IMG/VR virus record: IMGVR_UViG_3300020442_001876
Span: 1 to 31,832 of that record
Reading direction: 5' to 3' (one strand)
DNA: 31,832 nucleotides
Source of the DNA: a virus
Lineage: Duplodnaviria > Caudoviricetes
How positions within the stretch are numbered: the first letter of the stretch is position 1; every line of letters begins with the position of its first letter. The notes beneath the pieces are model-generated. The model searched no databases. It was not told where the DNA came from and saw nothing but the letters and a program-made list of their open reading frames with translations. Shown in pieces: positions 1-31,803 of this stretch. The translations under genes and the position numbers were made by a program.

Positions 1-852
1 ATGGATTGGTTCCCACAAGGTAACCAAAGTGTCTTTTGGCAAGCAATGCTTGACAATGACAATCACGATTTAAAAATCAATATCAAACCAGGTGGTCCAA
101 AAGTACATACCACTGCACAGGTTGCCGCAGGTTCAGTTGAATTTGGACTTCAAGCATCTGATTCAGTAATGGCCGCCAACGCCAAAGGTGCAGGTCTTGT
201 TGCAATTTTTGCCAACCTTGACCACGTGCCATATACACTTGTATTTCATCCTGACCAAGGGATTAAAACTGTTAAGGATCTTGAAGGTAGAAGATTTGCC
301 GTTAAGATGGGTGTAACATATTGGAAATGGGTAAAAGCAGAATACGGTGTAACTGCACAAGAATTCCCACTTAAAGGTGACTTAGGATTGTTTGCTAGGG
401 AAAAAGAAATGTTCCAACAGGGCTATTCACTTTTTCTTCCTGCTAGACTCGCCGCCAAAGGTGTGCCAACAGATCAAATTAAATTGGTAGACTTAGGCTA
501 CAGACCTTACAGTACTCTTTTCACAACACAAAAGATGATTGACGAGAACCCAGAACTTGTACAAGAAGTTGTGGATAGACTGCGAGCGGCATTTGTAAAG
601 TCACTAAACAATCCGGATCCAACTGCTGACCTTATTCTTTCAAAATCAAAGAAAGTAACTAGAGATATTCATATGAATGCTATTGAGCTTATGAAGGCTG
701 AATTTTTACCTAAAGACTACAGCAAACTAGGTTGTATGAAGTCAGAACGTTGGGACGAATTAGCAGGACAACTAAAACAAGTTGATATGGTTCCTGCAGA
801 CTTTGATCCTTCAGCGAGTTACAATTTATCTTTTATGGGCAACTGCGAATAA
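1..852 (+). CDS. ABC transporter substrate-binding protein, NMT1/THI5 (SsuA/TauA-like) family; 5' end with signal peptide probably lies outside the window
   Basis: Begins at the family's N-proximal DWxP motif (MDWFPQGNQ); GGP...VAAGSVEFG and PYSTLFTT...ENPELV segments; followed by ATPase and permease. Confidence 0.88.
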   Translation: MDWFPQGNQSVFWQAMLDNDNHDLKINIKPGGPKVHTTAQVAAGSVEFGLQASDSVMAANAKGAGLVAIFANLDHVPYTLVFHPDQGIKTVKDLEGRRFAVKMGVTYWKWVKAEYGVTAQEFPLKGDLGLFAREKEMFQQGYSLFLPARLAAKGVPTDQIKLVDLGYRPYSTLFTTQKMIDENPELVQEVVDRLRAAFVKSLNNPDPTADLILSKSKKVTRDIHMNAIELMKAEFLPKDYSKLGCMKSERWDELAGQLKQVDMVPADFDPSASYNLSFMGNCE

Positions 853-864
853 AAGGTAACTGCA

Positions 865-1569
865 ATGATAGGAATTTCCAAAGTTAGTAAACACTTTGAT
901 GAAGTTCAAGCATTAGCAGAAGTAAATTTAGATATTGCCACAGGCGAGTTCATTTCTATAGTTGGACCTTCAGGCTGTGGCAAATCTACACTACTAAGAA
1001 TAATTGCTGATCTAGTGCCAACTGATGGAAGTGTTACCAAACCCAAAAAGGGTGCATTTGTATTTCAAGACAGTGCATTGTTACCATGGCGTACCGTACA
1101 AGGCAATGTAGAATTGCTGATGGAACTGGAACACACAGATAACAAGAGAGCCAAAGCCGCAGTAGCTCTAAAACAGGTAGGCCTAAATGGTTTTGAACGT
1201 TCATACCCACATCAGTTATCAGGCGGTATGAAAATGAGATTAAGCCTTGCAAGAAGTTTAGTATTAGATCCCGAATATATTTTATTAGATGAACCATTAA
1301 GTGCAGTAGATGAATTAACAAGAGAAGTACTGCAAGAAGAATTATACGACATGTGGACAAGAGACAAGTTCACTGCAATACTAGTAACCCACAACATAGC
1401 TGAAGCAGTATATCTAAGCAACAGAGTTGTTGTGATGTCACCCCGACCTGGCAAAATTACAGACATTGTAGATATACCATTTAATAAAAGAACACCAGAC
1501 ATTAGAAGTAAACCACAATTTAGTAAAGTTGTAAATGATATAGCAGGAAAGTTAAGAACATGGAAATAA
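865..1569 (+). CDS. ABC transporter ATP-binding protein, NitT/TauT family
   Basis: Walker A GPSGCGKST, Q-loop VFQD, signature LSGGM, Walker B ILLDEP, H-loop VTH. Confidence 0.97.
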   Translation: MIGISKVSKHFDEVQALAEVNLDIATGEFISIVGPSGCGKSTLLRIIADLVPTDGSVTKPKKGAFVFQDSALLPWRTVQGNVELLMELEHTDNKRAKAAVALKQVGLNGFERSYPHQLSGGMKMRLSLARSLVLDPEYILLDEPLSAVDELTREVLQEELYDMWTRDKFTAILVTHNIAEAVYLSNRVVVMSPRPGKITDIVDIPFNKRTPDIRSKPQFSKVVNDIAGKLRTWK

Positions 1570-2333
1570 AAAAGATCATACCACCTGCATTGATATTAGC
1601 TTTGTTTTTAGGAGGTTGGCACATTGGTGCGTTGATATACGATATGGCTTTTATATTGCCTACTCCTTTTGCCGTTGCAAAACAATTTGTAGCCGACTTT
1701 GAAATAATTATGATAGGACTAGGACTTACATTTAGAGCCGCCTTCACAGGCTATGTAATTGCAATATTGATAGGCATAACTGTAGCTACAATAATGAGTC
1801 TTAACAAAATTTTAGAACGCAGTTTATATCCTTATGCAATACTATTACAAACTGTACCAGTGGTTGCTGTTGCACCATTGATTGTATTATGGTTTGGGTT
1901 TGAAATCAAAAGCATTATTATTATCAGTATTATTATTAGCTTATTTCCTATTATCAATAATACACTTTTAGGATTAAACAGTACAAACAAAACACTTGTT
2001 GAACTATTTAAATATCACAAAACTAACAGCATTACAAATTTTATAAAATTACGTTTCCCTGCCGCAATTCCTAACATTATTGCAGGACTTAAAATCAGTG
2101 CAGGACTTAGTGTAATTGGTGCTATTGTTGGAGAATTTATTATTGGCTCAGGCAGTGAAGATGGAGGCTTAGGAGTGCAGATTATATATGCACAAGCAGA
2201 ATTAGAAACAGCTCTAGTAATGGCTTTGATACTTACAGCCACAGGACTAGGCTTTGCATTTTTTATCACGGTACAAACTATTGGTTGGTACTTGATGCGT
2301 AAATGGCATGAATCAGAAATGAAAGGAAGTTAA
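1560..2333 (+). CDS. ABC transporter permease, NitT/TauT (SsuC/TauC-like)
   Basis: Multiple hydrophobic segments, ILPTP motif, KLRFPAAIPNIIAGLK...AIVGEF...GLG. Confidence 0.95.
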   Translation: MEIKKIIPPALILALFLGGWHIGALIYDMAFILPTPFAVAKQFVADFEIIMIGLGLTFRAAFTGYVIAILIGITVATIMSLNKILERSLYPYAILLQTVPVVAVAPLIVLWFGFEIKSIIIISIIISLFPIINNTLLGLNSTNKTLVELFKYHKTNSITNFIKLRFPAAIPNIIAGLKISAGLSVIGAIVGEFIIGSGSEDGGLGVQIIYAQAELETALVMALILTATGLGFAFFITVQTIGWYLMRKWHESEMKGS

Positions 2334-3227
2334 ATGGACAAAGTACCTGTAATAGATATCAGTAGAGATCCTAAAGTTGTACACGAAGAAATAGATGAAG
2401 CATGTAAAAAGTGGGGATTCATTGTTGTAAGCGGACATGGAATAAGCAAAGATCTTATTGATAGAATGTTTAGTATCAACAAAACATTTTTTGATCAGCC
2501 ATTAGAACATAAAGAACAGTTTCAAAATATGGAGCATGGTAGAGGTTATTACAAAGTAAGAGCAAAGGCACTTGCTAAAACATTAGGTATTGAAGATGCT
2601 CCACCTGATGAAAAAGAAACATTCAGCATGGGTCAGGAAGGCATTCCAGGAGATCCATATTACGAAACAGAAGGTGCAAAGGGTTTCTTCTATCCCAACA
2701 TCTGGCCCAATGCAGATATGAAAGCAGTCTATGAAGAGTACGATAAGATGTGTGTTGATCTATCACAACGTTTATTAGATCTAATGCATTGTCCTTTACG
2801 CAGTGACAAACCAATCAGTAATTTGATTGTGCATAACTATCCTAAACAAGATGTATCGCCTGAAGGTATAAGAGCAGGTATGCATACAGACTTTGGAAGT
2901 CTAACTTTGTTATTGACTGAAGACAAACCAGGTGGACTACAGGTAATGGGGTTAGATGATCAATGGCACGATGTAAAGCCGTTACCATACACTTTTATTG
3001 TAAACTTGGGAGACCTTATGCCACGTTGGAATCCTGAATGGCGTAGCACATTACATAGAGTTACTAATCCTCCAGTAGGTAGTGAGTCAAGACGCATGAG
3101 TATTGTATACTTTCATGCACCTAATTATGAAACAGAAGTAGACGGTACAACGTCAGGCGAACATTTAATGATGAAATTTGGTAAAAACAAAAACTTGGAG
3201 ATACAAAATGACAACAGTAGCTCGTAG
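2334..3227 (+). CDS. 2OG-Fe(II) oxygenase, isopenicillin N synthase/DIOX family
   Basis: VPVIDIS...ACKKWGF...GHGI N-terminus; HxD (HTDFGSLTLL), distal His (STLHRV), RxS (RMS). Confidence 0.93.
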   Translation: MDKVPVIDISRDPKVVHEEIDEACKKWGFIVVSGHGISKDLIDRMFSINKTFFDQPLEHKEQFQNMEHGRGYYKVRAKALAKTLGIEDAPPDEKETFSMGQEGIPGDPYYETEGAKGFFYPNIWPNADMKAVYEEYDKMCVDLSQRLLDLMHCPLRSDKPISNLIVHNYPKQDVSPEGIRAGMHTDFGSLTLLLTEDKPGGLQVMGLDDQWHDVKPLPYTFIVNLGDLMPRWNPEWRSTLHRVTNPPVGSESRRMSIVYFHAPNYETEVDGTTSGEHLMMKFGKNKNLEIQNDNSSS

Positions 3228-4221
3228 AAAACTAGGACTTACACATTACGATAATAGAACGGCAGGTGGTTACACATTGTTTGCACCACAAACAGGTGGC
3301 GGTAGAGTGCCACTGATTGATGATGGAGGTGAACTGGTGCATGAATGGAACATGCCAGTTCGACCAGGTCGTGATGCTGTGATATTACCAAATGGTAACT
3401 TAGGATACAATGGCAGTCATAATACCAGTGTTGATCTGTATCCACCTTGGGATATTTGGCATGGCGGACATTTTATGGAAGCAGATAGCAAAAGCAATAT
3501 TGTTTGGGAGTATGAAGATCCTTATGCTCATCACGATGCACAATGGTTAACCCATGGATTGCTTTATGTTGCCGCGGCTGATTACAAAGATGGTCGTTAC
3601 AGTGACGTGGTTAGAATAATTGATCGCCAGGGCAACGTGACATGGGAATGGTGTGCATGGAAAAAACTTAGCGAAAAGAATTGGCCTGTACATGAAGGTA
3701 TGCCAGACAACCATTGGCCCATGATTAATGGTGTGCATTTACATGACAATATTGTATACATGAGCTTGAGGAATACTTCAGGTATAATTGGTGTACACAT
3801 AGACAGCAAAGATATTGTTTGGCAAAAGAAATGGCCAGATGTAGCACAACAACATTGTCCTGTTGTAACTGATAAAGGAACATTAATTGCATTTTGCAAT
3901 GGTAATATTCGTCCGCCTAGTGTACATCATAGTAGAATAGTAGAATTTGATTTAGTGACTAAAGAAATGGTCTGGAGTTACGTGGACGACATGCCTCCAG
4001 CATTTTTCAGTCCCTATATGGGTAGTGTGCAAAGACTTTGGAACGGCAACACATTTATTTGTGAAAGTGCCTTTGGTAGACTTTTTGAAGTTACTGCACA
4101 AGGCGAAACAGTTTGGGAATATGTGATTCCTGACTTTGCCGAATACCCGGAACCGCTCAATAAATTTATAACTGGTAAACAAAATTCTTGTTTTAAAGCA
4201 CATAGATACAAAAATTATTGA
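3208..4221 (+). CDS. Arylsulfotransferase (ASST)-like beta-propeller protein, no signal peptide
   Basis: HHD, QQH, FxNG, SRIVE, GSVQRLWNGNTFICE...GRLFEVT..GETVWEY motifs; start at ATG 3208 behind GGAG. Confidence 0.8.
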   Translation: MTTVARRKLGLTHYDNRTAGGYTLFAPQTGGGRVPLIDDGGELVHEWNMPVRPGRDAVILPNGNLGYNGSHNTSVDLYPPWDIWHGGHFMEADSKSNIVWEYEDPYAHHDAQWLTHGLLYVAAADYKDGRYSDVVRIIDRQGNVTWEWCAWKKLSEKNWPVHEGMPDNHWPMINGVHLHDNIVYMSLRNTSGIIGVHIDSKDIVWQKKWPDVAQQHCPVVTDKGTLIAFCNGNIRPPSVHHSRIVEFDLVTKEMVWSYVDDMPPAFFSPYMGSVQRLWNGNTFICESAFGRLFEVTAQGETVWEYVIPDFAEYPEPLNKFITGKQNSCFKAHRYKNY

Positions 4222-4246
4222 CATGTGTGTAAATTTATTGTATACT
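4218..4246 (+). promoter_or_regulatory. Sigma70-type promoter upstream of prs
   Basis: TTGACA (4218-4223), 17 bp spacer, TATACT (4241-4246). Confidence 0.8.
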
Positions 4247-4277
4247 ATAATTAAATCTATAAAGAGGAAGGCTTACA

Positions 4278-5237
4278 TTGAGTATGAAAATTATTTCAGG
4301 TAACGCCAATAATAAATTGGCACAAGAAATTGCAGAACATTGTTTTGCAAATCTAGTCCCAGCGAACATTAGCACATTTGCTGATGGCGAGACTAGTGTA
4401 GAATTTTTAGAAAATGTTAGAGGGCAAGACGTTTTCATTGTTCAACCAACATGTACACCCGTAAATGATAGTTTAATGGAACTTATGGTGATGACTGATG
4501 CCGCCAGACGTTCTAGTGCAGATAGAATAACCGCAGTTATACCTTACTTTGGTTATGCTAGACAAGATCGTAAGAGTGCTAGTAGGACACCTATAACTGC
4601 AAAACTAGTAGCAAATTTAATTGTTACTGCTGGTGCAGATAGAATTCTTACAATGGATCTTCATGCTGGTCAGATACAGGGTTTCTTTGATATACCTGTG
4701 GATGATCTTACCAGCAGGGTGGTTTTCTCTAAAGACATTAAACGGACTATAGGTATTATTGATGATCCTGACGTTGAACAGGTAGGCACAGTATTTGTAT
4801 CGCCAGACGCAGGTGGTGTAGTCCGTGCAAGAAAGTTTGCAGATATGTTTCATGGAGACATTGCAATAGTAGATAAACGCAGACCAGAAGCAGGCAAGTC
4901 AGAAGTAATGAATCTAATAGGAGATGTAAAAGGCAAACATGCTATACTCGTAGATGATATAGTTGACTCTGGTGGTACACTTTGCAATGCGGCAAAAGCA
5001 ATTATGGATGCGGGTGCTTTAAGTGTCCGTGCTTATATTACACATGGAGTATTGACCGGAGAAGCATGTCAAAAGGTAGAAAAGAGTGTACTTGCAGAAT
5101 TAGTTGTGACAGATTCTATCCCTAATAGATGTCCTAAGGGTTGTAAAAAAACAAGACAGGTTTCTGTATCTGAATTGTTTGGCGAAGCAATAAGACGTGT
5201 TCACAATGAAGAGTCAGTAAGTAGTTTGTTTGTCTAA
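4278..5237 (+). CDS. prs: Ribose-phosphate pyrophosphokinase (PRPP synthetase)
   Basis: FADGE, PYFGYARQDRK, MDLHAGQIQGFF, VSPDAGG, VDDIVDSGGTL motifs; start TTG 4278 or ATG 4284. Confidence 0.97.
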   Translation: MSMKIISGNANNKLAQEIAEHCFANLVPANISTFADGETSVEFLENVRGQDVFIVQPTCTPVNDSLMELMVMTDAARRSSADRITAVIPYFGYARQDRKSASRTPITAKLVANLIVTAGADRILTMDLHAGQIQGFFDIPVDDLTSRVVFSKDIKRTIGIIDDPDVEQVGTVFVSPDAGGVVRARKFADMFHGDIAIVDKRRPEAGKSEVMNLIGDVKGKHAILVDDIVDSGGTLCNAAKAIMDAGALSVRAYITHGVLTGEACQKVEKSVLAELVVTDSIPNRCPKGCKKTRQVSVSELFGEAIRRVHNEESVSSLFV

Positions 5238-5405
5238 ATTTTTCTGTAAACACACAAATTGTTTATTAAAATGAGTAGGAAAAAATAATTTCCTTGCCTT
5301 TGCAGAGTATTCACATCTAGGTTTATGATTAAATGTTGCTACATGTTCTGTAGTAATTGATCCGTCATTCAAGGCTGTAACAAGTATCAGAATCCAATCT
5401 TTCAT
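5214..5405 (-). CDS. Small putative exported protein with two Cys
   Basis: Hydrophobic N-terminus, F-x5-C ... FVC pattern; start overlaps the lipase stop codon (TAATG coupling). Confidence 0.6.
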   Translation of the reverse strand: MKDWILILVTALNDGSITTEHVATFNHKPRCEYSAKARKLFFPTHFNKQFVCLQKNLDKQTTY

Positions 5406-6151
5406 TACATTGCTTCACTAATATTTGTGTGATATGCAATTATATCATGATCGCCTATTGAGTCAAACTTTCTCGCTTTGATTCCTGCCCACATACCTTT
5501 ACACCAGTCTTTAAATCCTGGTTTACCTATTTTATTATCGCTTGTAATATAATGCATAGTACCGTGATGTCTATACCCCATTATCCATAATGGTACTTTG
5601 GTAACTATATCATTATTATTTCTCCAGCGATGATGTGTTACGTCAAGGCTTTCAACATATTTTTTCCAACCTACTCTTGGAGAACCATATGTATAAAGTT
5701 CGACAGGATCATTTAGTTCATCATTAAATTTCGCTCTTGACGCCATTATTGTTGCCATTGCTCCGCCCAAGCTGTGTCCACAAAACCATAAGTTTTTCTT
5801 TAGGTTTGTCTTTCTGTTTATATCTTCACATACCATTGGCCAAAGTTCATCTACTTCTTCTTTGAATCCTTTATGTACTCTACTAATGGTTTCTGACATA
5901 ACAGGTATAGCTTTTAAGTCTGCACTAATATCATTCCAACAAGTAGGTTCTGTTCCTCTACATGCAATTACAAGATCCGTTTTATTCATAAATCTGTATG
6001 CTTGAGCACCTTCCCTATCGTAAAACTCAATTGTTGAAAAACCTAATTTTTTTGCTTGACTTTTAGCTTTGTCAATGTTATAGTAAGCGATCCTTGCTAA
6101 ATTAGCAAACAAAAGAGATCGATCTTTAAAGTTTAATGAAATTATGTCCAT
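5405..6151 (-). CDS. Class 3 lipase (alpha/beta hydrolase)
   Basis: RGT, VHKGF, GHSLGG nucleophile elbow, YGSPRVG, NDIVTKVP, DH; start moved to ATG 6151, which has GAGGAG upstream. Confidence 0.92.
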   Translation of the reverse strand: MDIISLNFKDRSLLFANLARIAYYNIDKAKSQAKKLGFSTIEFYDREGAQAYRFMNKTDLVIACRGTEPTCWNDISADLKAIPVMSETISRVHKGFKEEVDELWPMVCEDINRKTNLKKNLWFCGHSLGGAMATIMASRAKFNDELNDPVELYTYGSPRVGWKKYVESLDVTHHRWRNNNDIVTKVPLWIMGYRHHGTMHYITSDNKIGKPGFKDWCKGMWAGIKARKFDSIGDHDIIAYHTNISEAM

Positions 6152-6177
6152 TGCCCTGCTCCTCATTATTATAAACA

Positions 6178-6198
6178 TATTTATTATCACGCTAAATA
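6178..6198. promoter_or_regulatory. Back-to-back TAAATA late-promoter-like motifs (minus 6178-6183, plus 6193-6198)
   Basis: Both sit in the only divergent intergenic gap and resemble the T4 late promoter TATAAATA. Confidence 0.6.
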
Positions 6199-6217
6199 CA
6201 AATATAGGGTAGATGCC

Positions 6218-6472
6218 ATGAGAAAACAAACTAGAACAATACTACAAGAACTTAATTCATTAGCTTTAAACAAGCCGAACAGTGACTTATTGATTGAAAC
6301 AACTGCTGATAATATAATTAAAAGCAGTATAAACCTATTAAACCTAATAAATGAAACATATGACGCTCACACTGCTAATGAACTAGAACGCAGATTTTTA
6401 AATTCTATCAAGTCTGGGGATCCAAGAAAGTTCAAACGTGGTGTGCAAAAAATTATAGAGAGTAAAAAATGA
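6218..6472 (+). CDS. Hypothetical helical phage protein
   Basis: 84 aa ORF with ATGA overlap to the next gene. Confidence 0.75.
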   Translation: MRKQTRTILQELNSLALNKPNSDLLIETTADNIIKSSINLLNLINETYDAHTANELERRFLNSIKSGDPRKFKRGVQKIIESKK

Positions 6473-7230
6473 TACTTAAAGAAGGTGGTAATATATTTAA
6501 GGATCCTGAAACAAAGGAACCTTTAACACAAAGGATTAACAAAGAAGATGTTATTCCTACTTTACAATGGCTTGAAAAAATCACCAATCTACCTCATGAA
6601 GACTTTATGCTAGGCACCACTGGTAAAAAAGACACTAGTGGTGACCTAGATGTTGCAGTCAATCAAGAAGAAGTTACAAAAGATGATCTTGTGCAAAGAT
6701 TAGTAGCTTGGTGTAAACAAAATGGAAAAGATCCAAAGCAATGGATTAAGAAGTCTGGTATATCTGTACACTTCTTTACACCTATTAGAGGTGACGAAGC
6801 AAACGGATTTGTTCAAACAGACCTTATGTTTGGTGATCCTAACTGGATGAAATGGAGTTTACGTGGAGCAAGTGGTGATAGTCCTTATAAAGGACAACAT
6901 AGACAGATTTTAATGAGTAGCATAGCATCTGCACAGGGAATGAAATGGTCCGCCAATGTAGGATTAATGGATCGTGAGACAAATGAAATTATAAGTAAAA
7001 GTCCTGTAGAAATTGCAAAGAAACTGTTAGGACCAAATGCACAGCAAGATGACTTAGAATCAGTAGAAACTATTATAACTAGAGCAAAAACTTTACCTAA
7101 CTATGAAGAGCTGGTAGCTGATGCTAGAGAAACATTTAGTAGAATGAATTTAACATTACCTGAAAGCAGAAGCAAAGAAATAGAAAATGCTCTGAATTTA
7201 GATAGAATAAGAGAGTTAGCAGGATTATGA
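6469..7230 (+). CDS. Pol-beta-superfamily nucleotidyltransferase-like protein, probably virion-internal
   Basis: LGTTGKKDTSGDLDVAV matches hG[S/T]x(n)DhDh; third Asp in VQTDLM; N-terminal MILKE; C-terminal LDRIRELAGL. Confidence 0.7.
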   Translation: MILKEGGNIFKDPETKEPLTQRINKEDVIPTLQWLEKITNLPHEDFMLGTTGKKDTSGDLDVAVNQEEVTKDDLVQRLVAWCKQNGKDPKQWIKKSGISVHFFTPIRGDEANGFVQTDLMFGDPNWMKWSLRGASGDSPYKGQHRQILMSSIASAQGMKWSANVGLMDRETNEIISKSPVEIAKKLLGPNAQQDDLESVETIITRAKTLPNYEELVADARETFSRMNLTLPESRSKEIENALNLDRIRELAGL

Positions 7231-8354
7231 GATTCCACGAATTTAAATTAACAGAGTCAAAATTATTTGAAGCTGAAGCTCGTATTCAACATGCTGAAGA
7301 TGTTGTTTTCTGGGAAGGTTCTAAAGGTGCGGCTAGAGCTATAGAAAGTTTAAAGAAACTTGAGCAAGGAGGACATAATGATGTTACAATCAAATGGGAT
7401 GGATCTCCCGCAATCATTTTTGGACGCGATGTTGATGGAAAGTTCGTGTTTACCGACAAGAGTGGATTCGTCAAAAAAGGAGGAGTTGAGAGAGCAACCA
7501 GCGGCGCTGACCTTGAACAATTCTTACTTAACCGCGGTGGCGGAGCAAACAAGGATAACCCAGACCGCATAGCATTTGCCGGAAAGATGAAGCAGGCATT
7601 TAAATTATATGAACGTGCAACACCAAAAGATCATAGAGGATATTTCAAAGGAGACTTGTTATATTACACAACTCCGCCTTTAAAAAATAATACTTTTGTT
7701 TTTACACCTAATATTGTAACTTATACTGTAGATGTTGATAGTGACATTGGAAAACGTATACAACAAAGCCAATCTGGTATTGTTATACACAGACAGTTAG
7801 ACGAACAAGGAAATGAAAGTGCTATTACAATAGATCCTAATACATTTTTTGAAGGCAATGATGTGTTGGTATTTCCTCCAGTCACAGTCACAAAAGGTCC
7901 GCAAATTATAGATAAAGAAATACAAGAATTACAAGCCATAGTTTCTAAAAATGCATCTGCAATGGACAAGTTGTTAGATAAAAATACATTGGCTGGTCTT
8001 AAACTAAGTGACTTTAGTGATGTGCTTTACAAGTATGTTAATCAAACCAATATGAAAAGTGATTTTGTACAATGGTTAGGCACAAGTAATGTTAGTAAGG
8101 TAAAACAACAAAGAATCATAGAATACATCGGACAAAACAAAGCAGGATTTGACGCTTTGTGGCAAGTTGTATCTGGCATCCAAAAGGTTAAAAATGATAT
8201 AATCAACCAATTTGATAACCATGATGCTGATGTTAAGGCAAGTATAGGCGATAACCCAGGCGGAGAAGGATATGTGTTAGCTCACCCACAAGGTGATATA
8301 AAACTTGTAAATAGAAGTGGATTTACTGCCGCTAATAGAGCAGTACAAAGATAA
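7227..8354 (+). CDS. RNA-ligase-like covalent nucleotidyltransferase (DUF6267-like), probably virion-internal
   Basis: Motif I VTIKWDGS (KxDG), III YFKGDLLY, IV GEGYV, V IKLVNR; N-terminal MRFHEFKLTE. Confidence 0.7.
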   Translation: MRFHEFKLTESKLFEAEARIQHAEDVVFWEGSKGAARAIESLKKLEQGGHNDVTIKWDGSPAIIFGRDVDGKFVFTDKSGFVKKGGVERATSGADLEQFLLNRGGGANKDNPDRIAFAGKMKQAFKLYERATPKDHRGYFKGDLLYYTTPPLKNNTFVFTPNIVTYTVDVDSDIGKRIQQSQSGIVIHRQLDEQGNESAITIDPNTFFEGNDVLVFPPVTVTKGPQIIDKEIQELQAIVSKNASAMDKLLDKNTLAGLKLSDFSDVLYKYVNQTNMKSDFVQWLGTSNVSKVKQQRIIEYIGQNKAGFDALWQVVSGIQKVKNDIINQFDNHDADVKASIGDNPGGEGYVLAHPQGDIKLVNRSGFTAANRAVQR

Positions 8355-8364
8355 GGAAAAAACT

Positions 8365-8739
8365 ATGAAACTAAAAGACATAATGAAAGAAGGCGACTTT
8401 GACGATTTGGGTCTAAAAAATTATGGTAAAGAACTAGACCAAGACGACACAGGAGCAGGTTTTAAGAATGACTCAATGTTTGAACAGTTAGGTAAAATCC
8501 TTGATAGTGCTGGAAATCCAAATCCTATTAAGCATGTTATGACAGATGACGGTGAAAAAGTTGAAGTATCACCTCAACAAGCAAGAGTGCTTAGACAACT
8601 GTTAACTGCTGAAGGTGTAAAGCCTAACGTAAAGATGCAGTTTACAAAGGATATCCAAAACAGTCAAACACTACATGATTTCGTAGATGTAAAAGATTAC
8701 CACAAGATGGGTCAAATTTTCATGCAAAAGTATATGTAA
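8365..8739 (+). CDS. Hypothetical protein, candidate head-internal protein
   Basis: ATG 8365 behind AAGGA; starts MKLKDIMKE. Confidence 0.7.
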   Translation: MKLKDIMKEGDFDDLGLKNYGKELDQDDTGAGFKNDSMFEQLGKILDSAGNPNPIKHVMTDDGEKVEVSPQQARVLRQLLTAEGVKPNVKMQFTKDIQNSQTLHDFVDVKDYHKMGQIFMQKYM

Positions 8740-8740
8740 G

Positions 8741-9613
8741 ATGGAATTTATAAAAGAGATTACAGAAGCTAGAATGACACGTGATAGTTCAAACCAAAGG
8801 GTTTTGACCTATACCGATTGTTGTGAGCGGACTTATCTATCTCTTTTAGCACTAGAGTTTATGAGAAACTTTCCATCTTACACTTCTTTTGTGCAAGATT
8901 ATTGTAAAAAATCAAGACATCATAATTACCAACATTTTAAAATAAGTGGCACTGATCTATATAATTTAATTTACTTTATACGAGGTGACGAACATGCTCT
9001 AGGAAAACTAAAAGATCCCGGAGCCGCAAAAAGGATGCAGGCATCAATAGCTTGGCCAAAGAATGATGTTGCAGACTTTTTAAGTAAAGTAGGTAGTGGC
9101 TTAAAACCTACAAATGTTAATCAAATGTTTATACGTTTAGAGAATGGGTTAGATATACCTAATACAGATTATAAAAATAATAGACGATCTTTAACAAATT
9201 TTTCAAGACTTTCTAACAACGACAAAAAAACTCTAGCAACAAGAATACTATATGCTTTACGTGCTAAATTAAGAAACAGTGATATTATAGATGACTTTTC
9301 TAAACTAGTTGCTGGTAAGGGCTTAGAAAGTAATTGGGTAGATGACACAGAACCAACAGTAAGTAGTCCAGATATAAAACCTACCACTAGTGCTGACTAT
9401 GTATATTACCGCCTATTAGCTAAACCAGAAAACTTAATATTAATAAAAGGTTTCCTTGAATATATGAGAGCAGGAAAACCTATACCAGGAAACATGGTAC
9501 GTGCATACCAACCAGTAGCACAAGCAATGGATGACATTGTTCGTGCAGGCCCATCTTACATCAATATGTTAAGATCTATCCAAAATCGGGCCAAAAACAG
9601 CGTAAAAAGCTAA
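8741..9613 (+). CDS. Hypothetical protein, candidate head-internal protein
   Basis: 290 aa ORF; starts MEFIKEITE. Confidence 0.75.
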   Translation: MEFIKEITEARMTRDSSNQRVLTYTDCCERTYLSLLALEFMRNFPSYTSFVQDYCKKSRHHNYQHFKISGTDLYNLIYFIRGDEHALGKLKDPGAAKRMQASIAWPKNDVADFLSKVGSGLKPTNVNQMFIRLENGLDIPNTDYKNNRRSLTNFSRLSNNDKKTLATRILYALRAKLRNSDIIDDFSKLVAGKGLESNWVDDTEPTVSSPDIKPTTSADYVYYRLLAKPENLILIKGFLEYMRAGKPIPGNMVRAYQPVAQAMDDIVRAGPSYINMLRSIQNRAKNSVKS

Positions 9614-15481: not shown

Positions 15482-15820
15482 ATGACTGATAGAACAGATG
15501 AAGAAATCATCGAACAAATCAAGCATCTGATTGAAACCAATGTAAAGCCAGCAGTGGCAAGCCATGGTGGTGTAATAGATTTTGTAAATTATAAAGACGG
15601 GCATCTTAATCTTATACTAGGTGGAGCATGTAGTGGTTGTGCTAGTAGCACTATCACGCTGAAAATGGGCGTTGAGAACATGATAAAACATTATGTTCCA
15701 GAAGTACAATCCATTTCAGCAGAAGATGATCCAAACAGCACTGTAGACCCATATTACATGCATGACCCATTTATGGAGAGATTTGACGAATACGAAGATG
15801 CCCATGACGCTGATAAGTGA
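15482..15820 (+). CDS. NifU/NfuA-like C-terminal domain Fe-S cluster carrier protein
   Basis: VKPAVASHGG...LGGACSGCASSTITLKMGVENMIKHYVPEV with CxxC. Confidence 0.93.
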   Translation: MTDRTDEEIIEQIKHLIETNVKPAVASHGGVIDFVNYKDGHLNLILGGACSGCASSTITLKMGVENMIKHYVPEVQSISAEDDPNSTVDPYYMHDPFMERFDEYEDAHDADK

Positions 15821-16484
15821 AAAATTTAAATACAAACCTATAGAACGAAAACAAATTGATGGTAGGAGAAAATATTTAACTCCTGACGGAAAAGCCGTAG
15901 CTAGTGTTACAACTATACTTGATGCCACTAAAGATAAAACACATTTAATTAATTGGCGTAAAAGGGTAGGAGAAGCAAAAGCACAGGAAATCACTATCGA
16001 AGCGGCAGGCGTGGGTACACGAATGCACAAGTATCTTGAAGATTATATTGAGACTGGAGATTGGCCTACTCCTGGTAGCAATCCTTATGCTCAACAAGCC
16101 CATAAAATGGCAGGTGAGATAAAAAAGAAAGCATTGAAAGATGTAAATCAAATATGGGGATCAGAAGTTAATTTATACATGCCCAGTATGTATGCAGGAA
16201 CTACAGATCTAGTCGGACAATACAAGGGCAATGATTGCATAATGGATTTCAAGCAAACTAACAAGCCAAAGAAAGAAGAATGGGTTATAGATTATTACCT
16301 TCAATTGGTTGCTTATGCAGAAGCCCATAATGAAATTTATGGTACAAATATAAAAGAAGGACATGTGTTCATGTGTTCTCGTGAATTACAATATCAACAG
16401 TTTGATGTTTGGCCTCATGAGTATGATGAATGGCGTGAAGAATGGTACAAGAGGTTATACACGTATTATGACAAACACTTCTAA
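15804..16484 (+). CDS. PD-(D/E)XK exonuclease (phage/MGME1-like)
   Basis: SVTTIL, WRKRVG, GTRMH, YAGTTDLV, IMDFKQ, QLVAYA; start ATG 15804 or 15798. Confidence 0.88.
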   Translation: MTLISEKFKYKPIERKQIDGRRKYLTPDGKAVASVTTILDATKDKTHLINWRKRVGEAKAQEITIEAAGVGTRMHKYLEDYIETGDWPTPGSNPYAQQAHKMAGEIKKKALKDVNQIWGSEVNLYMPSMYAGTTDLVGQYKGNDCIMDFKQTNKPKKEEWVIDYYLQLVAYAEAHNEIYGTNIKEGHVFMCSRELQYQQFDVWPHEYDEWREEWYKRLYTYYDKHF

Positions 16485-17148
16485 AATAATCGTAGCATTA
16501 GATTACACGAATCCTTTAGATGCATTAGAAATGGCGGCTAAACTTAGAGACGTGGTAGACGGATTTAAAATTAACCATGCATTATGGAGCCAAAGTGTTT
16601 ATATCAAAGATTATACAAAAGACAACGAACTTTTTATTGATTGTAAACTGTGGGATACACCAAACACTGTCAAGCAAGTACTACAAAAAATTGTAGATAA
16701 GGGTGCAACAATGGCAACTATTTGTACTCAAAACAGTGAAAGTGTATTCGAAGCAATACAGCCATTTGCAAGTATGACAAAACTTTTAGGAGTTACATAT
16801 CTTACAAGTTGGGACGGACAAGAAAGAGCAAGTTTATATAATAATACTGTGGAACAAATGTGGGAAACCAGTATTGATAAAATGATAAAATATAAATTTG
16901 CTGGTGTTATCTGTAGTCCATTAGATATCAAAACTATAAAATTTGTAAAACCTTACAATCATTTAATTAAAGTTTGTCCTGGAATACAAACAAAAAACTA
17001 TGAATCAAAAAAAGACCAAAAAAGAGTTACAACACCCAAAGAAGGACAGCAACTTGGTGCAGATTTCTTGGTTATTGGAAGATCTATTACTGAGTCAAGC
17101 GATCCGATCGACACAATCCAAAATATACGCAAGAGCTTATCGGCATAA
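16468..17148 (+). CDS. pyrF: Orotidine 5'-phosphate decarboxylase
   Basis: IIVALD, FKI, DCKLWDTPNT (DxKxxD), GVTYLTS, VCPGI, DQKRVTTP, LVIGRSI. Confidence 0.92.
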   Translation: MTNTSKIIVALDYTNPLDALEMAAKLRDVVDGFKINHALWSQSVYIKDYTKDNELFIDCKLWDTPNTVKQVLQKIVDKGATMATICTQNSESVFEAIQPFASMTKLLGVTYLTSWDGQERASLYNNTVEQMWETSIDKMIKYKFAGVICSPLDIKTIKFVKPYNHLIKVCPGIQTKNYESKKDQKRVTTPKEGQQLGADFLVIGRSITESSDPIDTIQNIRKSLSA

Positions 17149-23480: not shown

Positions 23481-23759
23481 ATGGCTATGCGAGGTGGTCA
23501 AACCTTCAAAGAAGAAATACAGCCAAATAAAAAATATAAACCATATAAAGGAATCGGTCGGCTAATACATGGTCGGCCGGTTGTCTTCTATGCAACTGAT
23601 GATCCTGAATTTCAAATGTGGATACACAGACGAAAAGAAAGAATCCGGTTAGGAGTGCTTTCTCTGTTCTGGGCATCATTTGCTTATATTGTAGTAGACA
23701 TTTTTTATTTGCAAGTATATAAAGAAATGGTTGACAATACCATTCGATATATGTTATAA
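23481..23759 (+). CDS. Small membrane protein, hypothetical
   Basis: One hydrophobic segment LGVLSLFWASFAYIVVDIFYL; 3' end overlaps the tmRNA promoter. Confidence 0.55.
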   Translation: MAMRGGQTFKEEIQPNKKYKPYKGIGRLIHGRPVVFYATDDPEFQMWIHRRKERIRLGVLSLFWASFAYIVVDIFYLQVYKEMVDNTIRYML

Positions 23760-23762
23760 ATA
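23731..23762 (+). promoter_or_regulatory. Composite promoter for tmRNA: sigma70 -35/-10 overlapping a perfect T4-type late TATAAATA
   Basis: TTGACA 23731-23736; TGnTATAAA; TATAAATA 23755-23762. Confidence 0.7.
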
Positions 23763-23766
23763 TAAT

Positions 23767-24072
23767 ACAACGTTGAAGCAATTCGAAAGTTGGACTGGAC
23801 CCGGGGGCGGTACCCGGCGCCTCCACCAAAACACTTTTAAGACGAGAGTCTTTTTATGGGGGCGAAATAGGATCGACAGGCAGTGAATAGGAAAGTGGAG
23901 TTGTCCGGATGTAAGCTCGGTTAACGCGAACAAACTTTATAAATGCAAACGAAAACTTTGCACCTGAAGCGTTCACTTCTTTAGACATGTCTATGGACAG
24001 TGAACTTATCGCCGCTTAATAACCGGTGAGCTTCGCGGTATGGTTCCACCGGGCAACAGAACGGGCCATTCC
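23767..24072 (+). ncRNA. ssrA: tmRNA, circularly permuted two-piece alphaproteobacterial type (acceptor piece ~23767-23828, intervening segment 23829-23857, coding piece 23858-~24072)
   Basis: T-arm CCGGG-GGCGGTA-CCCGG, then CGCCTCCACCA; downstream GGGGGCGAAATAGGATCGAC completes a 7-bp acceptor stem with G3-U70; tag ORF 23945-24019 ANENFAPEAFTSLDMSMDSELIAA then TAATAA; outer ends approximate. Confidence 0.95.
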
Positions 24073-24096
24073 TTCCTTATATAAAATAAATACAGT

Positions 24097-25080
24097 ATGC
24101 TTGTACAAGAAATCCTCATCGAGAAAAAAGATAAAACCGCAGACTTAGGGCAAACTATTATAAGTTTGTTGAAGAAAACTCCTAAGGCAAAACGTGCAGG
24201 TAGCCAAGGGCAATTCCAAAACGATCCTGGTAAGATACATGCTAAAGCAAGAGCATACTTTAGGACTTGGTGTAAAAGAAACGGCATGAAATATATCAAT
24301 CCTAACATAATGAATCGTGGTGGAAGTAAAATACGTTTTTATACATTTGTAGGTATGATGCAAAAAGAATGTGGTCTTCCTGTATCAGGTGTCCTTGACG
24401 TGTCTACTATGAGAGGATTTTTGGAAAATTCAAATAGATTTACAGACAATTATATAAACAGTAGAGTAGAGCAATCAATATCTTCTAGTTCATCGTCTGT
24501 TCCTAGAGGCTGTATTGATGTTGTAAAGGCAATTGAAAATCCGGTTAATTTATGGACAAGTGCATATGCTAGTTATCATGATATCAACGGGAGGCTAGAT
24601 AGTGGTATTGGTCCTGGACAGGTAGAACCTAAAACATACGGTGATGTTAAAGGTGGAACTTTTAATTTTGCAGACTGGGATGACGTGACAAGTATTCAAA
24701 AATTAACTACATTGATGTTAGAAGCAATACAACTGAAAATGGGATTTGCAGATAGAATTGCTAAAAAGGGCGGGAGAGAATTTGCAACATTAGAAGACTT
24801 TGCAAAAGCATGGAATTACAAACATTTTGGTAAAGCAAAAAACATTTACGGAGATAACAAGCCAATGCGTCCTGAAATGGTTACAAAGTCTCCGCCAAAA
24901 AGACCCGACGATCTAGGTAAAGAACCTAAAGCACCCAAAGTAGATAAAACTTCAATAGATAAAGCAGTAACTAAAGCATTAGAACCAGAACAAAAACCTG
25001 AAGAAAAACCAGGATACTTTAGTAGACTTAAAAAAGGTTTGGGTAGTATGGTTCAAAATTATTTAGATTCGGATAAATGA
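24097..25080 (+). CDS. Putative virion-associated peptidoglycan hydrolase (PG-binding-like segment + lysozyme/SLT-like motifs)
   Basis: QKECGLPVSGVLDVST; KAIEN and GIGPGQVEPKTY (E...GxxQ) and AWN; starts MLVQEILIE; TAAATA 4 nt before the ATG. Confidence 0.5.
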   Translation: MLVQEILIEKKDKTADLGQTIISLLKKTPKAKRAGSQGQFQNDPGKIHAKARAYFRTWCKRNGMKYINPNIMNRGGSKIRFYTFVGMMQKECGLPVSGVLDVSTMRGFLENSNRFTDNYINSRVEQSISSSSSSVPRGCIDVVKAIENPVNLWTSAYASYHDINGRLDSGIGPGQVEPKTYGDVKGGTFNFADWDDVTSIQKLTTLMLEAIQLKMGFADRIAKKGGREFATLEDFAKAWNYKHFGKAKNIYGDNKPMRPEMVTKSPPKRPDDLGKEPKAPKVDKTSIDKAVTKALEPEQKPEEKPGYFSRLKKGLGSMVQNYLDSDK

Positions 25081-31163: not shown

Positions 31164-31553
31164 ATGAGTGATATTAACATAATAACACCACCCGATATTT
31201 TACACAACAAAAATTTTTCAGTATTCTTATTATATCCCAGTTTGTACGTAAAAGAACAATTCCAAGAAATACTTACAAAAAGCAAGAGTAGATTTAACGT
31301 GTATATGTATCAAGATCCAAACGGACAAGATATAGACTGGGTTTTGAATGTGCATAAATTGAGCCAAATAGTAATTTTGGATTTGGATAATCTTCCCCCA
31401 TTTTGGAAAAAATTAGAATCATATTTGGTAAGTTTTGGTAACACTTACTACTTGACAAAAGCCGAAGAAATAATGTATAATAAGATTAGTGCGAATAGAA
31501 TATTTGCAGTAGAAGAAATTGAATCAAAACTCGGAGGTAAATTTGAGATTTAA
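31164..31553 (+). CDS. Hypothetical protein
   Basis: 129 aa ORF starting MSDINIITPPD. Confidence 0.7.
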   Translation: MSDINIITPPDILHNKNFSVFLLYPSLYVKEQFQEILTKSKSRFNVYMYQDPNGQDIDWVLNVHKLSQIVILDLDNLPPFWKKLESYLVSFGNTYYLTKAEEIMYNKISANRIFAVEEIESKLGGKFEI

Positions 31554-31803
31554 TACTAAAAGAAAATGGAGTAAAGATAACTATACTCCAGGAGACGGTA
31601 TTACGGTAATTGTCCGTAATAACGATGTTAATGCCGCTTTACGTAAATTTAAGAAAAAAGTACAAGAAGCAGGTATTATACAAGAAATAAAAGAAAGACA
31701 ATGTTACGTCAAACCAAGCGAAAAGAAAAGGAAAGCAAAAGCGGCAGGTAGAGCACGATGGCTGAAAAAACAAGCCAAAGAAAAAATAGATCGTGGATAC
31801 TAA
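31543..31803 (+). CDS. rpsU: Ribosomal protein bS21 (phage-encoded) with N-terminal extension
   Basis: VIVRNNDVNAALRKFKKKV...GIIQEIKERQCYVKPSEKKRKAKAAGRAR; TTG 31543 behind GGAGGT. Confidence 0.92.
   Translation: MRFNTKRKWSKDNYTPGDGITVIVRNNDVNAALRKFKKKVQEAGIIQEIKERQCYVKPSEKKRKAKAAGRARWLKKQAKEKIDRGY

Follow-up and report, generated by a model that had tools for sequence, protein, structure and literature searches.

An ABC importer cassette with an oxygenase and an arylsulfotransferase-fold enzyme in phage genomes and its possible link to purine salvage

Introduction

Most nutrient genes of phages are single components that strengthen a system of the host, and among transporter genes pstS is known to be carried by phages. 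Here we describe a block of five genes that takes up the first 4221 bases of IMG/VR virus record IMGVR_UViG_3300020442_001876 and codes for an ATP-binding cassette (ABC) importer, an oxygenase of the IPNS/DIOX family and an enzyme with the fold of arylsulfotransferase (ASST). The window that we analyzed is the entire record of 31,832 bases. We tentatively read the block as a route for uptake of a nucleobase-like ring compound by the importer and removal of a sulfate from it by the ASST-like enzyme, with purine salvage being fed during infection, a reading that we consider quite possible though short of probable.

In regards to uptake machinery on viruses, a survey of viral transporters lists, in the portion available, ABC transporters from eukaryotic viruses and nucleotide transporters from phages (PMC6163359). 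Complete ABC systems with binding protein, ATPase and permease are described, in the accessible text of a preprint, beside 15 pspA genes in gut huge phages (bioRxiv 10.64898/2026.10.24.761521). The statement made in a first-pass annotation of the window, that phages usually carry single transporter components, is thus fair as a rule but has this reported exception. The main text of the same preprint gave no match to an NMT1-type importer, a sulfotransferase or purine salvage, and its supplements may be relevant. Concerning the enzymes, the available sections of two papers place His252, His356, Asn358, Arg374 and a sulfated His436 in the ASST active site (PMC10932419, PMC13426309), and Cpz4 is described as sulfating a liponucleoside (PMC13426309). 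For thymine-7-hydroxylase, the portion consulted reports that Arg190 is critical, with Lys or Ala at this position drastically cutting activity, and that replacement of Tyr217 by Phe is tolerated (PMC4787775). We found no description of the cassette in the literature searched, most subscription papers being outside the reach of that search. New here are the change at the His356 position, the split of the accompanying oxygenases into two types (A and B), the swapping of gene slots and a probable cellular copy of the five-gene order.

Results

The five-gene block is intact and belongs to a phage genome

The block and its right border are made up of the following features, with the Pfam matches of all five block genes exceeding the curated cut-offs.

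1-852, plus strand: NMT1/THI5-like ABC substrate-binding protein (Pfam NMT1, 5.8e-22)
865-1569, plus strand: ABC ATPase of the NitT/TauT type (Pfam ABC_tran, 7.1e-28)
1560-2333, plus strand: ABC permease (Pfam BPD_transp_1, 1.1e-24)
2334-3227, plus strand: 2-oxoglutarate (2OG)-Fe(II) oxygenase of the IPNS/DIOX family, type A (Pfam DIOX_N and 2OG-FeII_Oxy, 4.2e-26)
3208-4221, plus strand: ASST-fold beta-propeller enzyme, cytoplasmic (Pfam Arylsulfotrans, 5.6e-15)
4218-4246, plus strand: sigma70-like promoter match (11 of 12, a consensus match only) before prs, at the right border of the cassette
4278-5237, plus strand: prs, coding for phosphoribosyl pyrophosphate (PRPP) synthetase, a backbone gene outside the cassette (NCBIfam PRK01259, above cut-off)

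All five open reading frames (ORFs) of the block have the same orientation, and successive genes are separated by +12, -10, 0 and -20 nt. The earliest possible start of the fifth ORF is a TTG at 3178; the ATG at 3208, which has GGAG 7 nt upstream and agrees with the starts of homologues, is most likely the one used. Elsewhere the window holds phage genes for ribonucleotide reductase, a virion protein, endolysins and ribosomal protein S21 (rpS21, 31519-31803). The ORF coordinates, the Pfam matches and these phage genes agree with the first-pass annotation of five tightly spaced or overlapping genes in a phage context that are followed by prs.

GC content is 0.34-0.41 across the block and 0.31-0.41 across the window with no break in composition, and the third-position GC content and codon use of the five genes lie within the range of 15 other window genes. 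Two further IMG/VR contigs (L002 and L003) with 94-97% nucleotide identity to the window likewise join the block to prs and the virion-gene region. At the joint between the ASST-like gene and prs, one contig spans positions 4100-4661 with zero differences in two DNA runs of different studies, and read depth is unbroken over positions 1-9000, so that continuity of the contig, on which the proposal of a phage-borne block had been made to depend, is confirmed. Pairwise dN/dS ratios, taken from loci of at least 75% identity and with one pair saturated, are 0-0.15 for all five genes, which are intact and under purifying selection. Together with the intact ATPase motifs and iron-binding triad described below, this upholds the view that an intact import-and-modify block is carried by the phage and is not contamination. 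In a scan of 102 selected long ORFs, contigs with the cassette fall into at least two phage backgrounds and hold genes for DNA polymerase, terminase, UvsX and helicase, and the CheckV completeness of five cassette contigs implies genomes of about 250-350 kb. All five genes are partly covered, with 2-7% differences, by contigs from two RNA runs of a single study; other genes are covered too, DNA carry-over is possible, and these contigs give a weak hint of transcription of the block.

The importer and the ASST-like gene form a core that trades places with another gene pair

We examined 35 IMG/VR contigs, of which 12 end within the block and 23 are long enough to display it. In every one of these 23, the genes for the binding protein, ATPase, permease and ASST-like enzyme occur together. 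The gene order in the lineage of the window is a 319-aa membrane protein (weak similarity to PHO4), a variable slot, prs, a lipase and virion genes. Among ten loci with both borders present, the slot holds the cassette in two (L002, L312), is empty in two (L313, L317), holds a BMP-type binding protein (a label taken from Pfam 'PnrA-like') with a type B oxygenase in one (L165), and holds a short insert in the other five, which is a 200-aa ORF in the two that were read. A similar exchange is seen in the context of folE, where BMP and type B (L127-L129) alternate with BMP, cassette and type B (L004) and with the cassette alone (L007-L010). It is seen again after the genes for GuaC (GMP reductase) and a xanthine phosphoribosyltransferase (PRT)-like protein, a position that is occupied either by BMP (L205, L214, L227) or by the binding protein of the cassette (L022, L091, L092). 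We conclude that the cassette is an accessory element which, in several phage lineages, has been inserted into or has taken the place of the much commoner pair of BMP and oxygenase among purine-salvage genes.

Relatives that have no cassette still have prs (L313, L317 and L322, for example). Judged from its sequence surroundings, prs is independent of the cassette and has a promoter-like site of its own, in a region where sigma70-like sites number 27 against a chance level of 24.1 +/- 5.2. This independence, and the location of pyrF (16363-17148; TIGR01740, above cut-off) 12 kb away, speak against the specific partnership of the block with prs and pyrF that had been suggested. Across phages the neighbors of the cassette are instead mainly purine-salvage genes, with the xanthine-PRT-like gene flanking 21 of the 23 cassette contigs and lying directly upstream in L002 and L003, as compared to three contigs flanked by pyrF and two by PyrB. 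Since purine-salvage neighbors are common in phages, their adjacency by itself is modest evidence, and the repeated substitution of the cassette for BMP is the stronger hint.

The ASST-like enzyme retains the fold and four of five catalytic residues

The ASST-like enzyme has 337 aa and consists of the propeller only, with no hydrophobic segment or signal peptide. A phmmer search of PDB sequences with this protein gave no match, and matches came from profile and fold searches only. Its structure model (pLDDT 88) matches Cpz4 with a Z-score of 32.5 (rmsd 2.6 over 304 residues) and E. coli ASST with a Z-score of 28.7 (rmsd 3.3 over 305), with other propellers at 21.8 or below. When aligned by profile to 3ELQ and 9KF4, the E. 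coli residues His252, Asn358, Arg374 and His436 correspond to H109, N174, R188 and H216, and the position of His356 is occupied by M172. The first-pass label of an arylsulfotransferase-like enzyme therefore holds for the fold and for four catalytic residues, but with one of the five absent the name 'sulfotransferase' is not secure.

The change at this position characterizes the clade. All 12 bacterial orthologues have Met or Leu there, and the signature H-W-P-[ML]-x-N takes the place of [ED]-W-x-H-x-N in the wider family, which brings in a new invariant histidine (His169) three residues upstream of the His356 position. Invariant in 89 aligned homologues are H85, H108, H109, H169, H216 and H241, as well as N174 and R188. 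His356 of ASST serves as acid/base for the phenol, and its loss would then fit hydrolysis, not transfer to phenols, and a substrate whose leaving group is a good one.

These same changes lend themselves to a second explanation, in which the importer and the salvage role are unaltered but the ASST-fold protein performs no sulfuryl chemistry and acts on an unsulfated modified nucleobase, for example by His-rich metal-assisted hydrolysis or by phosphoryl transfer. The replaced clade motif, the six invariant histidines and the pairing of the enzyme with NCS2 permeases (see below) would all be expected from such an activity. However, the sulfate-binding set of His252, Asn358, Arg374 and His436 is fully kept, the two sulfotransferases score far above other folds, and two bacterial copies lie within sulfur-scavenging clusters. 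We thus regard a non-sulfuryl enzyme as unlikely, although this is the alternative that survives best.

The importer and its bacterial relatives point to a small compound that is imported and then processed

The importer has the parts of a Type I ABC importer of the NitT/TauT family, namely an NMT1/SsuA-type receptor, an ATPase with all five motifs (Walker A, Q-loop, LSGGM signature, Walker B and H-loop) and a BPD_transp_1 permease with at least five hydrophobic segments by hydropathy. Its description as complete holds in that all three components are intact, but the contig ends inside the binding-protein gene of the window, so that 25 N-terminal residues, the signal peptide among them, lie outside it; the full-length protein in L002 and L003 has 308 aa and a hydrophobic N-terminal signal. 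The best NCBIfam models for the ATPase are SaoA, TauB and SsuB, but every score falls below its curated cut-off (bits and cut-off: SsuA 54.8 and 163.5; SaoA 197 and 360; TauB 183 and 357; SsuC 70 and 347), which places the importer outside the TauABC, SsuABC and SaoAP equivalogs. The next-nearest binding proteins (27-30% identity) adjoin cytosine-deaminase-like and creatininase genes.

Bacterial orthologues of the ASST-like enzyme show 39-57% identity and mostly stand with a divergent LacI or LysR regulator. Their partner importers are of four kinds. The first is a uracil-xanthine or purine/pyrimidine permease in Salmonella, Pantoea and Burkholderia; the Salmonella protein STM3631 is classed as NCS2 in the available text of PMC5607611. 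The second, in Variovorax, is an NMT1-type ABC importer orthologous to that of the window, the third is an unrelated SsuA-like ABC importer (Alloyangia, Salipiger, Streptomyces, L036 and L037), and the fourth is a receptor of the tripartite tricarboxylate transporter type on a Comamonadaceae plasmid. No importer is present within the stretch examined of L038, and a further record came without annotation. That four unrelated kinds of importer accompany one cytoplasmic enzyme argues for import, and then processing, of one small compound, and the NCS2 partner argues that this compound is nucleobase-like. In addition, the Variovorax and Streptomyces copies lie among msuE, LLM monooxygenase and Rrf2 genes, and these sulfur-related clusters argue that the compound holds sulfur. 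An arylsulfatase gene is located near the Salipiger copy.

In cells the ASST-like gene is rare. Five loci were confirmed when 185,579 species genomes were scanned, with patterns so exact that Salmonella was missed. A close orthologue was found only in the alphaproteobacterial genome at the center of a search of 401 genomes and in none of the 400 sampled genomes of the surrounding class. No cultured phage among 50,697 records carries the cassette, and the few matches are bacterial or small unannotated records. Two such 'phage' records (H2 and H3; OR850888.1 and OR845952.1) hold a Salmonella-like enzyme at 51-56% and are probably host DNA. A contig of a Chloroflexota metagenome-assembled genome (L035, PAAV01000031.1) codes for a protein 100% identical to that of the viral contig L019 and is mis-binned phage DNA.

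A search for the five-gene synteny had been proposed; besides viral and metagenome loci (see below), a probable cellular copy shows it. Four loci of a low-GC marine genome (L298-L301) and L034, which is 99% identical to them, have the same five-gene order as the window at 59-72% identity. The flanks of L298-L301 hold short repeats and genes for an SDR protein and a LivF/UrtE-like ATPase, and these few flanking genes make a cellular origin probable. Relative to the Variovorax importer, the binding protein, ATPase and permease of this group show 45, 58 and 58% identity, and those of the window 42, 54 and 53%. In a tree made by a quick method, 17 phage ASST rows lie on one side of a branch and 12 named bacterial rows on the opposite side (SH-aLRT 100). 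The term 'phage-only clade' was nonetheless withdrawn, as the unlabelled rows within it include L034, which matches the cellular-looking L298-L301. This group falls inside the phage clade in both quick trees, and on these trees could be either the donor lineage or a recipient.

A further explanation would have the cassette obtain sulfur or carbon from an aryl or heteroaryl sulfate ester or sulfonate, with no nucleotide role at all, its purine context being that of an insertion hotspot. This fits with the ATPase and permease scoring best with the SaoA/TauB/SsuB and SaoP/SsuC models, with the SsuA-like receptor of Roseobacter-group copies and with the sulfur-related contexts in Variovorax and Streptomyces and the arylsulfatase in Salipiger. 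It fits poorly with NCBIfam scores that are all below cut-off, with a phage binding protein that has no significant match to SsuA-like receptors, and with the sharing of a slot with BMP in three separate gene contexts. Seawater sulfate is also plentiful at about 28 mM, so freeing sulfate would gain little. We therefore consider this form of scavenging rather improbable, and sulfur supply during infection, as put forward in the first-pass annotation, is possible but less likely.

Type A oxygenase belongs to the cassette and type B to BMP

The type A oxygenase has the HxD...H metal triad and the RxS 2OG-binding motif of the IPNS/DIOX family, with H184-D186-H241, Y169, R254 and S256 intact in invariant columns. 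An oxygenase of IPNS type adjoins the ASST-like gene in 17 of the 23 viral contigs, but these oxygenases fall into two clades that are only 25-30% alike. Every type A locus, 7 from viruses and 25 from metagenomes, is within the cassette, down to 58% identity; at the metagenome loci the permease is upstream in 24 and the ASST-like gene downstream in 24, with both misses at contig ends. This confinement indicates that the five-gene form is a real and persistent variant of the four-gene core. In contrast, type B has 257 viral relatives, and the best 80 of these have a BMP/PnrA-like binding protein nearby in 74 cases and the ASST-like gene in 7, which indicates that type B is the partner of BMP. 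Coupling of enzyme and oxygenase can consequently be argued only in part from their adjacency in 17 of 23 contigs, since 11 of the 17 are BMP-linked type B and only type A is specific to the cassette.

The pair of BMP/PnrA-like protein followed by IPNS-type oxygenase is itself very common in marine phages (L124-L202 and L118; for example L127:4879-6858 and L165:1194-3151) and often stands with an APRT, PurA or xanthine-PRT-like gene. In bacteria such a pair is presumably linked to purine salvage, for which our literature search gave no confirmation.

In regards to substrate, the first-pass annotation had pointed to a pyrimidine or aromatic in modified or sulfated form, and a corresponding explanation is that a thiamine precursor (HMP or FAMP) or a modified pyrimidine is imported, oxidized by an enzyme akin to thymine-7-hydroxylase and then put to use together with prs and pyrF. 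This draws on the NMT1/THI5 family match of the binding protein, whose closest solved structure by sequence is 4NMY, on thymine dioxygenase (5C3P) being the second-best solved relative of the oxygenase, and on the presence of pyrF, pyrB or TK near some loci. However, in an alignment to 5C3P, where file numbering is shifted by 2, the hydroxylase residues Arg190, Asn87, Glu122 and Asn294 are replaced by I165, G69, S98 and A262; Phe292 is kept (F260) and Tyr217 has become F187. Of these six positions only Phe292 thus matches, and the loss of Arg190 was not taken as decay because longer aligned relatives (324-341 aa, as compared to 285-303 aa for phage-type copies) are also without it. The profile matches of the binding protein to THI5 and THI13 are weak (E 1e-4 to 3e-3), no thiamine gene is among the annotated neighbors of cassette loci, and no riboswitch is present in the window or in L002, where 841 nt lie upstream. 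With prs independent of the cassette and with flanks that hold mainly purine-salvage genes, a pyrimidine or thiamine-precursor cargo is less probable still than the scavenging of sulfur or carbon, and the earlier pyrimidine reading is not sustained.

Other genes of the window and of cassette phages

The window codes for a permuted transfer-messenger RNA of alphaproteobacterial type (23714-24110, plus strand; RF01849 141.7 bits, cut-off 50, with ARAGORN in agreement), which points to an alphaproteobacterial host, and for a NifU/NfuA-like Fe-S protein (15482-15820). Near prs or the lipase, relatives of this phage code for a PstB-like phosphate ABC ATPase (L315:2-637 and L326:3-368; TIGR00972 334.8 bits for a partial ORF, cut-off 343.2), which suggests a fuller Pst system than pstS alone. 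Genes of the TctA family of tripartite tricarboxylate transporters occur in L281 (6318-7676), where they adjoin the cassette, and in L050 (6369-7868), with a 40% relative in the viral contigs G002 and G005. Whether L281 is viral or cellular is judged from a few flanking genes. Insertions are seen within the cassette itself, with an SbmA/BacA transporter between ATPase and permease in L022 (7518-8543) and PyrB plus RpiB between permease and enzyme in L024 (8583-9982). Cassette phages also carry isocitrate lyase (L018:11066-12340) and a ferredoxin-dependent bilin reductase (L047:9539-10231), and those of about 350 kb (L050-L052, L060) have long runs of radical SAM genes together with carbamoyltransferase and sugar-modifying genes.

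Discussion

Our preferred explanation remains the uptake and desulfation of a nucleobase-like compound. In this scheme the cassette was likely captured by a phage from a marine bacterial operon. Its ABC importer would take up a purine-type heterocycle sulfated on O or N and with a good leaving group, so that Met could stand at the His356 position. His216 would accept the sulfuryl group, in the manner of His436 in E. coli ASST, before passing it to water or to an acceptor. The oxygenase would hydroxylate or dealkylate the ring, and the xanthine-type phosphoribosyltransferase, with PRPP from prs, would then make the nucleotide.

Several observations weigh against this scheme. Among 120 homologues, 117 have Met and 3 have Leu at the His356 position while the wider family keeps His in 67 of 93 rows, so sulfuryl transfer may be lost. 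No oxygenase adjoins the enzyme in 6 of the 23 phage contigs and only BMP-linked type B does so in 11, several of the 23 contigs are near-copies and hence not independent, and neither a 2OG oxygenase nor a purine-salvage enzyme stands beside the ASST orthologue in any of nine annotated bacterial loci. The xanthine-PRT label is weak (E 4e-9, below cut-off). Moreover the phosphoribosyltransferase is a common phage gene with at least 351 viral relatives, and 60 close loci drawn from 80 of these have BMP in 38 and the cassette binding protein in only 10, so adjacency may reflect an insertion hotspot. A search for relatives of the binding protein with a purine ligand found none, no member has a known ligand or activity, and we know of no natural sulfated purine in seawater.

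A broader proposal is that marine jumbo phages give their hosts an uptake-and-unmasking pathway, absent from most cells, for an unrecognized sulfated nucleobase-like metabolite, with a sulfotransferase subfamily rewired to desulfation (His356 to Met, new His169) and with the cartridge being swapped with the purine-scavenging pair of BMP and oxygenase. Taken as a whole we find this proposal doubtful. If it were true, the enzyme together with a nucleobase permease in enteric and soil bacteria would mark an undescribed and widespread catabolic pathway. The weakest alternative, that the block results from a host-phage chimera or is bacterial DNA picked up recently and now decaying, could appeal to L298-L301, which share the five-gene order at 59-72% identity and are probably cellular, but it is practically excluded by the identical junctions in L001-L003 and in reads of two studies, the unbroken composition, dN/dS ratios of at most 0.15 and the occurrence in at least two phage backgrounds.

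In this case a phage lineage keeps a whole importer with processing enzymes under strong selection and moves them between genomes as a unit. As no close orthologue was found in 400 sampled class genomes, infection may give the host a new capacity and not strengthen an existing one. The cassette further draws attention to an orphan enzyme subfamily in which a catalytic residue has changed, and to a metabolite that is worth importing both for marine phages and for bacteria with nucleobase permeases.

Relative to known systems, the window enzyme has in common with the PAPS-independent sulfotransferases E. coli ASST/AssT (3ELQ) and Streptomyces Cpz4 (9KF4) the propeller fold and the equivalents of His252, Asn358, Arg374 and His436, but it is only about 20% identical to them, consists of the propeller only, and has Met at His356 and an extra His. 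E. coli ASST is also periplasmic, whereas the window enzyme has no signal peptide. As far as the available text on fungal thymine-7-hydroxylase goes (5C3P; PMC4787775), the oxygenase shares with it the IPNS/DIOX fold, the metal triad and the equivalents of Tyr194, Arg286, Ser288 and Phe292, but not Arg190, Asn87, Glu122 or Asn294. NitT/TauT importers such as TauABC, SsuABC and ThiXYZ are, like that of the cassette, three-gene systems with a BPD_transp_1 permease and an NMT1/SsuA-type receptor; the cassette differs in scoring below every equivalog cut-off and in having an ASST-like partner rather than TauD or SsuD. The closest cellular units, STM3633-STM3632-STM3631 of Salmonella and INQ48_40215-40200 of Variovorax, have an orthologous enzyme (48-57%) with the same altered motif, and only the Variovorax unit also has the orthologous ABC importer. 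Unlike the window block, these units have a divergent LacI or LysR regulator, no oxygenase and an importer that varies in type; no published function for either unit, STM3632 included, was found in the literature searched. Finally, the phage transporter genes described so far in the text available to us (pstS; PMC6163359; 10.64898/2026.10.24.761521) likewise represent uptake machinery of host type on a phage, but the importer of this cassette travels with its own cytoplasmic enzymes and swaps places with a pair of BMP and oxygenase genes.

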